Part shown: in pieces, positions 48,843 to 50,153 of the stretch
Numbering within the stretch: the first letter of the stretch is position 1
How the letters are laid out: the number at the start of each line of letters is the position of its first letter
Source: Candidatus Latescibacterota bacterium
GTDB lineage: Bacteria; Latescibacterota; UBA2968; GCA-2709665
Length of the DNA: 64,000 nucleotides
NCBI GenBank assembly: GCA_965226795.1
Contig: CBDDDZ010000004.1
Coordinates: 256,001 to 320,000 of the forward strand
Direction of reading: 5' to 3'
Position numbers and translations under genes: made by a program
Notes under the pieces: model-generated
Databases searched by the model: none
Seen by the model: only the letters and a program-made list of their open reading frames with translations
What the model was told of the DNA's origin: nothing

Positions 48843-49118
48843 CTACCTCTTGCAACTGCAGCGGCAACAACTTGATGGCTTCTCCTTATCGTCGTTAGTA
48901 GCCTCAGCTGTCAAGTAACCGGCAACGAAACCTTGAACGACAGGGACGACATACTTGGCCACTAACTTCACACCTTCGCGGATGAGTATCCCCCAACCTC
49001 CCTGTGTTTCTACCATCTGACGGCTTCCCAACAGTTCTTCGCGCGGTTGCAAGGGGTCGCAAGTTACAAACATGCGACCGGTTTCTGTAGTCATTGGATC
49101 TGTCAACGCATGTATCAT
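48843..49118 (-). CDS. Double-glycine precursor peptide D (41-aa leader, 50-aa core with Cys-rich tail)
   Basis: AGGAGG RBS; ...LLGSRQMVETQGG|WGILIREGVKLVAKYVVPVVQGFVAGYLTAEATNDDKEKPSSCCRCSCKR. Confidence 0.82.
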   Translation of the reverse strand: MIHALTDPMTTETGRMFVTCDPLQPREELLGSRQMVETQGGWGILIREGVKLVAKYVVPVVQGFVAGYLTAEATNDDKEKPSSCCRCSCKR

Positions 49119-49320
49119 GATGTCCTCCTGACGGATTAATTGAATTCCTTGCAATTCAAGAAATGATGTGCATCTCCCTTCACTGTTACGGTGTTTGTCC
49201 TCCGCTGTCAAGGGTTTTGAGGATTGTCGTGATTTCGTAAAGCGTCTATGTGTCGAGAACTCGTTCTGCACCTGGAAGCATAGCCGTACAACAGTCTTCT
49301 TCCGTTCCGAACACCAACCA

Positions 49321-49527
49321 TCAACGTGGTCTGGCCATGCGTTCGATAACTTCAGCGACAAGCCGCAGGGCGAAATTCACGTAACGCCCGAGTCGGTCAT
49401 CACCTGGAGGAACGAACCCACCTGAAGCATGCGCCATTTCACACCGCGCCAAGTTGGTTTCACGGCCGGGGAGTCGAGTGCACGTCACGGAGACCTCGGT
49501 TGGCGTGGTCAGAAATCGATCCGTCAT
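49321..49527 (-). CDS. Double-glycine precursor peptide C (37-aa leader, 31-aa core)
   Basis: AAGGAGGTGA RBS; ...NLARCEMAHASGG|FVPPGDDRLGRYVNFALRLVAEVIERMARPR. Confidence 0.85.
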   Translation of the reverse strand: MTDRFLTTPTEVSVTCTRLPGRETNLARCEMAHASGGFVPPGDDRLGRYVNFALRLVAEVIERMARPR

Positions 49528-49670
49528 TAAATCACCTCCTTTCTTCAACATTACAGCGGTTCGTAAGGATGTCGCGTGGACTTTGCTACCAGATTAACGA
49601 AGCCCACCCCATTAACAGCGGTGTTCGCTAAGAGGAATTGGTTGGCGAAGGTTCTGGCCCCCGGTCAATC

Positions 49671-49865
49671 CTAGTCTTCAAAGTAATCGACTATGGCCTC
49701 TGCAATTCTCTCGGCAATAAACCAGATCATAGGGCTCCTCCCAAGGGGTAAGAAACCACCAGATGTATTCCTCATCTCACGACGCGCCAGGGCGATTTCC
49801 TGTCCGGGGAGCTGAGCGCAGGTCACGGTGGCCTGCCCGGGTGTTGATAGAATATGATCGGTCAT
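49671..49865 (-). CDS. Double-glycine precursor peptide B (37-aa leader, 27-aa core)
   Basis: AAGGATGTGA RBS; ...ALARREMRNTSGG|FLPLGRSPMIWFIAERIAEAIVDYFED. Confidence 0.85.
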   Translation of the reverse strand: MTDHILSTPGQATVTCAQLPGQEIALARREMRNTSGGFLPLGRSPMIWFIAERIAEAIVDYFED

Positions 49866-49949
49866 TTCGTCACATCCTTTCTACTTTTGCTGTGGGATGT
49901 CCTTGCGAATGTCTCAGTCACCATAGCTCGATGAAATACTCCTCGACAA

Positions 49950-50153
49950 CTACAGTACAGGACCTGAAGTGTCCGCTTCCGGTGGATTCGTGCCTAAATC
50001 TATGCCGAACAGATCCCGCAGGATGTCCCGCCAGCGTATACCTCCACCGGAGATACGTGCGATCTGCCCGTGGGTCAAGTCCTCCGTCCGGATGGGAAGC
50101 CGAGCCGGAATTCCGGACGAGTCCACAGGGCTTGATACAGTTCGTCTGTTCAT
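49950..50153 (-). CDS. Double-glycine precursor peptide A (37-aa leader, 30-aa core)
   Basis: AAGGAGGTGA RBS; ...DLTHGQIARISGG|GIRWRDILRDLFGIDLGTNPPEADTSGPVL. Confidence 0.82.
   Translation of the reverse strand: MNRRTVSSPVDSSGIPARLPIRTEDLTHGQIARISGGGIRWRDILRDLFGIDLGTNPPEADTSGPVL

Follow-up and report, generated by a model that had tools for sequence, protein, structure and literature searches.

The window studied here is a stretch of 64,000 nucleotides from a Candidatus Latescibacterota bacterium, and the subject of this analysis is a group of four small open reading frames (ORFs) on its minus strand, between positions 48843 and 50153. They encode precursors of 64-91 amino acids (aa), each consisting of a leader that ends in Gly-Gly (GG) and of a core that follows it. 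The genes are named A to D by position, which makes the order of transcription D, C, B, A; the original prediction, an earlier note on this DNA, had used the letters the other way round, its A-D being D-A here. In order of transcription the genes are:

49950-50153, minus strand: precursor D, 67 aa, first gene of the operon; leader 50043-50153 (37 aa), core 49953-50042
49671-49865, minus strand: precursor C, 64 aa; leader 49755-49865 (37 aa, with VTCAQLPG), acidic core beginning with FLPLG
49321-49527, minus strand: precursor B, 68 aa; leader 49417-49527 (37 aa, with VTCTRLPG), basic core beginning with FVPPG
48843-49118, minus strand: precursor A, 91 aa; leader 48996-49118 (41 aa, with VTCDPLQP), hydrophobic core with a basic, Cys-rich C-terminal tail

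The four ORFs lie where the original prediction had placed them, and its description of the leaders proved accurate. All four carry Leu at -12, Met or Ile at -7 and Gly-Gly at -2/-1, those of B, C and D are exactly 37 residues long (the range being 37-41 aa), and the motifs VTCDPLQ, VTCTRLP, VTCAQLP and IPARLP read as it had written them. Precursor D has the GIPARLP variant, which is devoid of Cys. The 41 residues of leader A are counted from the ATG behind the ribosome-binding site (RBS); with an internal Met as start there would be 33. The RBSs had all been called strong, which is right for D (AGGAGGTG), B and A, where AGGAGG(TG) stands 5-7 nucleotides ahead of the ATG, whereas C has a weaker, moderate site (AAGGATG). 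The computed net charges of the cores (A +3, B +2, C -3, D -2) fit, after renaming, the claim of a basic core C, acidic cores A and B and a long D, and the two cores said to start with F-x-P-x-G are those of B and C. The helical patterning that had been proposed for all cores was checked for C alone, and there it was found: in an AlphaFold model of precursor C a helix covers residues 45-63, in the core, with a pLDDT of about 70-88.

Two other readings of the Cys residues were dropped. One was a lipobox at the leader Cys, as no signal-peptide-like hydrophobic stretch lies ahead of it; the other was a CAAX box in the Cys-rich tail of A, as the Cys is not consistently at -4 in the orthologues.

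A profile built from the four leaders gave full-length matches in other genomes with E values of 5e-19 to 1e-13 and, in the window's own genome, matched these four copies only (the D leader with an E value of 4.6e-20). Counting G000, full-length matches came from 40 of 61 related genomes. When a profile of 41 leader sequences was run over 168 genomes of the phylum, the leader was present in 39 of the 52 other genomes of one Candidatus Latescibacterota order (17/21 in family f1 and 22/31 in f2), and elsewhere in the phylum 115 genomes gave one marginal, partial match (E 8e-4). A search of 1.84 billion representative proteins returned 46 leader matches at E<=1e-3. Three of them, repeat proteins matched in several stretches, were dropped, and the 43 kept are 54-113 aa long and begin, or nearly begin, with the leader. 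The relatives' records belong to Candidatus Latescibacterota, and public records of members bear the name 'hypothetical protein' or no name at all.

Among 73 unique leaders the most constant positions are Leu-19 and Gly-2 (73/73 each), Leu-12 (71/73) and Gly or Ala at -1 (70/73), followed by Glu or Gln at -8 (69/73), Met or Ile at -7 (62/73), Arg-34 (59/73), Pro-18 (57/73), Pro-29 (55/73) and Cys-22 (54/73); position -4 is Thr, Ile, Ala or Val. The double-glycine motif is known for Gly-Gly, Gly-Ala or Gly-Ser at -2/-1, hydrophobic residues at -4, -7, -12 and -15 and an acidic residue at -8. A consensus for double-glycine leaders is also quoted in a survey of cyanobacterial clusters (PMC3140520). 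N-terminal to the C39 motif lies a second half of the leader which is equally conserved and has VTCxxLP at its centre.

None of the four peptides matched any NCBIfam model at E<=10, and their sole Pfam result was an irrelevant match to DUF697 (E 0.24). No match at E<=10 was obtained either to the models of the catalogued leader families Nif11, NHLP, bacteriocin-type signal and class IIb lactobin/cerein. The original prediction had named a full match of the leader to a known family as an outcome that would speak against it, and neither Pfam nor NCBIfam provided such a match at E<=10. A weak lead came from language-model neighbours in the ESM Atlas, which include class IIb bacteriocin, ComC and lantibiotic clusters, all below 0.9. 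The leader is a real, uncatalogued and lineage-restricted family. The prediction of a single leader family with the C39 pattern is borne out by profile matches beyond chance and by the catalytic-type C39 exporter encoded next to the precursors. This exporter forms a module with two other genes:

42496-45531, minus strand: long-type, peptidase-containing ABC exporter of 1011 aa; Pfam domains cNMP-binding (twice), C39, ABC membrane domain and ATPase
41068-42468, minus strand: HlyD-type membrane fusion protein (PF13437, PF16576) with one N-terminal hydrophobic segment
40256-41071, minus strand: SurA/PrsA-like PpiC protein of 271 aa (PF00639) with chaperone helices and a parvulin domain

In the exporter the cNMP-binding match (PF00027, 2e-29) falls in two stretches N-terminal to the C39 domain (PF03412, 133.6 bits), and the translation contains the catalytic Cys and His motifs of C39; the scores with TIGR01846 and TIGR03796 were below their cut-offs. 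The start of the PpiC-like gene overlaps the stop codon of the HlyD gene (ATGTGATG). No signal peptide or transmembrane segment was found in the PpiC-like protein, which should therefore act in the cytoplasm, on precursors with the leader still attached. Its score with TIGR04500 (PpiC_rel_mature) is 83 bits, below the cut-off of 180 for membership, and the match covers only model positions 84-336. A profile of its family matched the sequences of SurA and PrsA in the PDB, and the structural model matched the folds of 3nrk, 3rgc and SurA with TM scores of 0.3-0.4, weak matches because the model itself is poor (mean pLDDT 60).

The PpiC-like protein occurs in 17/21 genomes of f1 and 23/31 of f2, in the five leader-bearing genera plus g10 (1/3). 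One extra genome of the order that has it is 88% complete, and one distant match lies outside the order. At the level of genera this distribution resembles that of the leader, both being present in g1 (14/14), g2 (2/2), g4 (1/1), g6 (21/21) and g11 (1/1). Six TolC-like OEP proteins are encoded elsewhere in the genome and LptD within the window, from which it follows that the organism is diderm.

The linkage of leader and module is conserved in relatives. Public loci were collected from an alignment of 8 sequences with the pattern [ST]VTC[AV]QLPG, a set biased towards leaders of the VTC type. In 13/13 of these leader loci the exporter follows, with HlyD in 12/13 and the PpiC-like gene in 11/13, the misses being contig ends, and the order exporter, HlyD, PpiC is kept in 11/11 loci that reach that far. 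In the relatives' genomes an exporter with cNMP-binding and C39 domains adjoins the leader in 14 of 16 loci, that of G022 included, and 1-7 precursors stand directly upstream of the module. As these genomes are kin and the genes are linked, the shared distribution of leader and PpiC-like protein reflects co-inheritance and not an independent correlation.

The locus of G022 (L051, G022:C1:4128000-4147900) contains three tandem units ahead of exporter, HlyD and PpiC. Each unit is composed of a D-type precursor, a second precursor and a gene for a CPBP protease, and in two units the second precursor is of A type with a poly-Cys tail. In G039 (L046, L047 and L048) divergent exporter/HlyD/PpiC triads, with PpiC 38-50% identical, are preceded by GG proteins of 151-183 aa that are Gly/Ser-rich or very acidic and follow the theme C-x-x-L-P ... 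E/Q-M ... GG. At two of these three loci a Cys-rich membrane protein of 192-195 aa is encoded directly ahead of the exporter. Genomes of genus g6 (loci L034, L036, L038, L042, L044 and L051) carry GT28-like and GT1 glycosyltransferase genes directly before the precursors, within about 3 kb upstream. In some cases the GT28-like protein also contains a fused GT4 domain and then has about 850 aa, the GT1 protein has 467-477 aa, and the GT1 copies at two loci of one g6 genome are 91% identical.

Between precursor A and the exporter lie genes for putative membrane proteases, and CPBP paralogues are found again beyond the module:

47848-48690, minus strand: CPBP/Rce1-like intramembrane protease 1 (PF02517, 1.6e-20), motifs EExxxR, FxxxH and HxxxN intact; in the variable cassette
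46748-47602, minus strand: CPBP/Rce1-like intramembrane protease 2 (PF02517, 2e-20), motifs intact; in the variable cassette
45833-46648, minus strand: DUF3267 putative membrane zincin peptidase (PF11667, 1.6e-15), with a HEALH (HExxH) motif
38802-39905, 37821-38693 and 36840-37667, minus strand: three further CPBP paralogues (PF02517), mutually 56-80% identical

Comparison with relatives showed where this region changes. The window is 87-89% identical to G008 and G013 down to the left breaks. Against G008 the identity is 89% from 56000 down to 50044, the end of the D leader; the similarity is then patchy and reaches 94% again from the exporter start at 45536. With G013 the left break is at 50042, and identity is back at 49146, just before gene A (83%). 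In the DNA alignment the leader is nearly identical and the similarity collapses right after the GG codons. At the protein level precursor D shares 36/37 leader residues and 7/30 core residues with G008, against 24/37 and 26/30 with G014, so that the leader and the core of D have different histories. Exporter, HlyD and PpiC are 95, 96 and 91% identical to those of G008, compared with 50-55% for the second CPBP protease and the DUF3267 protein (50% for the CPBP protein). The first CPBP protease is 68% identical to its counterpart in G013, and none is reported in the G008 locus. Metagenome contigs from the runs of four further studies contain the whole cassette at about 98-99% identity. In two studies, co-occurring variants have their breaks at 50044 and 49756, the second position being the leader/core junction of C. 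The cores and the CPBP and DUF3267 genes form a variable cassette, and its left recombination breakpoint is the leader/core junction.

The original prediction of a conserved leader with hypervariable cores has to be reworded in the light of these comparisons. Cores are indeed exchanged behind a kept leader, as precursor D (G008 and G014) and the breaks of the DNA at the GG codons make clear. 'Hypervariable' is not quite the right word, as orthologues of all four core types occur in congeners and the core of B is kept better than its leader (24/31 against 23/37 in G013). A-type orthologues with poly-Cys tails are found in G008, G013, G009 and G022. The B, C and g6 cores look homologous, with Pro at +2 to +5 in 47/75 cores and an acidic-aromatic tail. 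As to the proteases, the DUF3267 gene recurs near the relatives' loci, the third CPBP protein is 89% conserved in G008, and the EExxxR, FxxxH and HxxxN motifs are kept in four of the five CPBP proteins.

Two hairpins flank the peptide operon:

50576-50605, minus strand: terminator-like hairpin upstream of D, from the terminator scan
48775-48810, minus strand: perfect inverted repeat of 13 bp past gene A, found by reading the sequence; it has no T-run and the terminator scan did not report it

The first is likely to mark the 5' boundary of the operon, and the second might possibly be an attenuator or a processing hairpin. A sigma-70 promoter scan of 45400-51300 gave 2 sites against 5.2 expected, none of them upstream of D, and Rfam gave no match over 36000-52000. 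Gene A is covered by contigs from RNA libraries (three runs of two studies), which is a hint and no proof of transcription because such libraries can contain DNA. These contigs gave no cover over B or most of C and D, which in data of this kind does not imply silence.

Taken together, the precursors are probably substrates of the adjacent module: with moderate confidence we propose that their GG leader of 37-41 residues is cut by the C39 domain and that the cores are likely secreted via HlyD and a TolC-like protein as microcin- or bacteriocin-like peptides. The anatomy, the distribution and the recombination pattern are shown, whereas every biochemical step is inferred and would be as follows. 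The precursors would be made in the cytoplasm and, if the chaperone-like partner MirC is a guide, the SurA-like PpiC protein likely holds them export-competent there. The C39 domain is predicted to cut after Gly-Gly, cleavage and export resembling those of peptidase-containing ABC transporter (PCAT) systems, and the cores would be released through an ABC/HlyD/TolC-like conduit whose TolC-like channel is encoded at an unlinked place. The cNMP domains may gate the export in response to a nucleotide signal, a role that has been proposed for HetC. For the CPBP and DUF3267 proteins encoded in the swappable cassette, a part in protecting the producer or in trimming the peptides is likely; in bacteriocin loci, CAAX/CPBP proteases have been reported to confer immunity, to process the peptide or to serve as its receptor (PMC9298176). 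The conserved N-terminal C-x-x-L-P half of the leader could be an extra recognition element for the machinery. Far more tentatively, this half (R-34, P-29, C-22-x-x-L-19-P-18) might be a docking signal for the SurA-like PpiC protein or the cNMP domains, with the leader acting as the homology anchor for swapping cores at the cleavage codon; we regard this idea as doubtful at present.

Several observations weigh against secretion of the cores as bacteriocin-like peptides by this route. Position -15 of the leader is Glu, Thr or Gln, polar residues, whereas it is hydrophobic in the classical C39 motif. D-type leaders have no Cys, in the same operon and with the same exporter, and the leader Cys cannot therefore be required for export. 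The leader of precursor C modelled alone by AlphaFold was unstructured (pLDDT 53-58), a result that says nothing on the bound form of the leader. In the poor model of the PpiC-like protein the parvulin domain, residues 132-232, is below a pLDDT of 50, and in the sequence the second conserved parvulin His appears to be replaced. The distinct cores are net negative in 53/75 cases, with a median of -4, unlike Gram-positive bacteriocins, which are typically cationic. At several g6 loci the stretch from precursor to exporter is free of CPBP genes. Finally, two leader loci of G023 (L049 and L050) have no exporter, HlyD or PpiC in the 19-20 kb covered, which means that orphan cassettes exist. The same two loci keep remnants of glycosyltransferase genes beside the leader-bearing precursors.

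The related cyanobacterial systems are a further point of this kind, as they serve biofilm formation or differentiation and not killing. The same machinery could accordingly secrete peptides that are no antibiotics, such as matrix or adhesion components or signalling peptides with nucleotide-controlled release, an account that we find unlikely and nevertheless the most serious of the alternatives. The EbfG1-4 proteins, whose secretion the PCAT PteB assists, are necessary for the formation of biofilms (PMC4997328), and HetC, a cNMP-C39-ABC exporter, drives heterocyst differentiation (PMC10986499). The mostly acidic cores would fit such a role, as would the core types kept across species (B 24/31, D 26/30) and the minimal g6 loci with no adjacent CPBP genes. 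However, the allelic replacement of cores at the cleavage junction and the fast-diverging CPBP cassette between conserved flanks are the pattern expected of antagonism/immunity loci. The tandem units of precursors and a CPBP gene in G022 also speak against such a role.

It is rather improbable that the precursors are peptides made by ribosomes and modified after translation (RiPPs), the long leader of which would recruit a modifying enzyme (the adjacent glycosyltransferases of some lineages, or one encoded elsewhere) with the PpiC-like protein as its partner, like MirC. The leader has 37 aa and its N-terminal half is conserved beyond the C39 motif, which is typical of RiPP recognition sequences, and Cys is present in 43/75 cores. 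The ATP-grasp enzyme MirB depends on MirC, a TIGR04500 protein (PMC13097080). The PpiC-like protein does not have the N-domain that MirC needs, its match beginning at model position 84. The GT28-like and GT1 genes stand directly upstream of the precursors in 5/5 g6 loci checked, with the same pair in G022, and peptide glycosylation in genus g6 is possible. These glycosyltransferases may, however, be simply envelope genes, and the pair has no counterpart in the window's genome, where the best match is 27% identical and lies elsewhere. Also in favour of modified peptides, the window itself has a divergent pair of genes for GtrA-like and TMEM260-like O-mannosyltransferase-type proteins, 80% conserved in G008 and G013. 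Against this reading, no ATP-grasp, LanM, YcaO, radical-SAM or SunS-like enzyme is found among the window ORFs, and the genome, which is 95.9% complete, gave no match to the graspetide synthetase model TIGR04187.

That the ORFs are chance frames or annotation noise, as their shortness and their records as 'hypothetical protein' or with no name might suggest, has practically no probability and is already refuted by the full-length leader in 39/52 other genomes of the order, the conserved place before the exporter, the RBSs and the near-identical copies in runs of four further studies.

Other features of the window were recorded beside these. Upstream of the peptide operon, between it and an ORF at 50788-51168 (minus strand, 126 aa), lies a palindromic element resembling repetitive extragenic palindromes (REP) at 50755-50785 (within 50720-50830), of which the genome has about 46 copies; the summed metagenome contig depth there ranges between 490 and 8000, and loose ends are present at either side. 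The ORF had no Pfam, NCBIfam or PADLOC match and is 88-98% conserved in G008 and G013, where it is split over two frames. It may resemble a truncated REP-associated (IS200-like) transposase. The GtrA-like and TMEM260-like genes (the latter of the protein O-mannosyltransferase type, with TPR) are at 51482-54003 on the plus strand, divergent from the operon; G008 and G013 have them in the corresponding position, with about 80% conservation. The true start of the larger ORF is probably later than listed, because the listed TTG start overlaps GtrA. Further away on the minus strand, 3341-5298 encodes an AAA_21 ATPase and a DUF4276 protein, which in PADLOC match HEC-01A (E 4e-54) and HEC-01B (E 1e-7), a pair that is a candidate for defence. 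A glutamate (methylaspartate) mutase-like set of MutE, MutL and a B12-binding small subunit is found at 31894-35238 (minus strand). The genes at 8234-17577 (minus strand) encode a MoxR AAA_3 ATPase, a DUF58/vWA protein, a TPR protein, DUF4175 and DUF4159; this set resembles a Bat/aerotolerance-like operon.

Literature searches on bacteriocin, PCAT or double-glycine gave no mention of Latescibacter among the best 15 of 286 matches. What is new is the family of leaders, together with its conserved C-x-x-L-P half at the N-terminus, and the cassette swap at the Gly-Gly codons, while the three-gene layout of exporter, HlyD and SurA-like protein was known already, in silico, from cyanobacteria. The locus is like variable bacteriocin/immunity regions such as the pneumococcal blp locus, where the export genes are conserved and enclose a mosaic cassette made up of peptide genes and genes for CAAX-type membrane proteins. 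It differs from them in that the breakpoint is precisely at the leader/core junction and the host belongs to an uncultured diderm phylum.

Class II microcins and bacteriocins, with PCAT, membrane fusion protein and TolC, are described as small gene-encoded peptides with a GG/GA signal, export-coupled cleavage and a membrane fusion protein, all of which are like the system in the window, and they too have adjacent membrane proteins as immunity candidates (PMC12219008); they are the paradigm of such export in diderms. The PCAT, the membrane fusion protein and the protein size (<= about 150 aa) fit their traits, and the signal is twice as long here: the leader of class II microcins is given as about 15-18 aa (PMC12219008), against 37-41 aa with the extra half R-34, P-29, C-22, L-19 and P-18. 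In addition, the module of the window contains a cytoplasmic SurA-like protein and cNMP domains, the cores are mostly acidic, and their activity is a prediction.

EbfG1-4 and PteB of Synechococcus elongatus are a close parallel in gene arrangement, with four tandem GG small proteins in one operon, an adjacent C39 exporter and a diderm host (PMC4997328). The EbfG proteins, however, serve biofilm formation, and the description of that operon mentions no cNMP or SurA component (PMC4997328). HetC of Nostoc PCC 7120 has the same domain order, cNMP-binding, C39 and ABC; it depends for its function on the cNMP domain, which binds ppGpp in vitro, and its substrate is given as unknown (PMC10986499). 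As described there, HetC has no adjacent membrane fusion protein, whereas the window exporter contains cNMP matches in two stretches and its substrates are clear. The chaperone-like partner in the rosaritide graspetide cluster, MirC (TIGR04500), is alike in that a cytoplasmic, SurA/Cj1289-like protein shares its cluster with a PCAT and with a precursor that has a GG leader, and 3rgc is a shared fold match (PMC13097080). The PpiC-like protein of the window scores 83 bits where the cut-off is 180, has no N-domain and has no ATP-grasp partner.

The cyanobacterial 'group I' bacteriocin clusters of Wang, Fewer and Sivonen (2011) number 57, with 0.35 precursors per cluster, and have in common with the window a long-type C39 exporter with N-terminal CAP_ED/cNMP domains, HlyD and a SurA-like protein with a rotamase domain (PMC3140520). 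For kinship between the SurA-like protein and its cyanobacterial counterparts the sole hint came from the Synechococcus elongatus control, where TIGR04500 gave a sub-threshold 'ring'. The window differs from group I in its phylum, its dedicated 37-aa leader, the 1-7 precursors directly upstream of the module and the added CPBP and DUF3267 genes. Among such clusters in cyanobacteria this CAP_ED-PCAT/HlyD/SurA module, to which HetC-type exporters belong, is the commonest type, and it is almost substrate-orphan there; if the docking idea is true, the loci described here expose its substrate-recognition code. With its obvious and abundant substrates the Latescibacterota module is a clean system for the partner of the extra leader half, the role of the SurA-like protein and the cNMP ligand. 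Moreover, the breakpoints at the Gly-Gly codons make the leader a fixed address with exchangeable cargo, and they also provide naturally validated fusion points for the engineering of peptide secretion.

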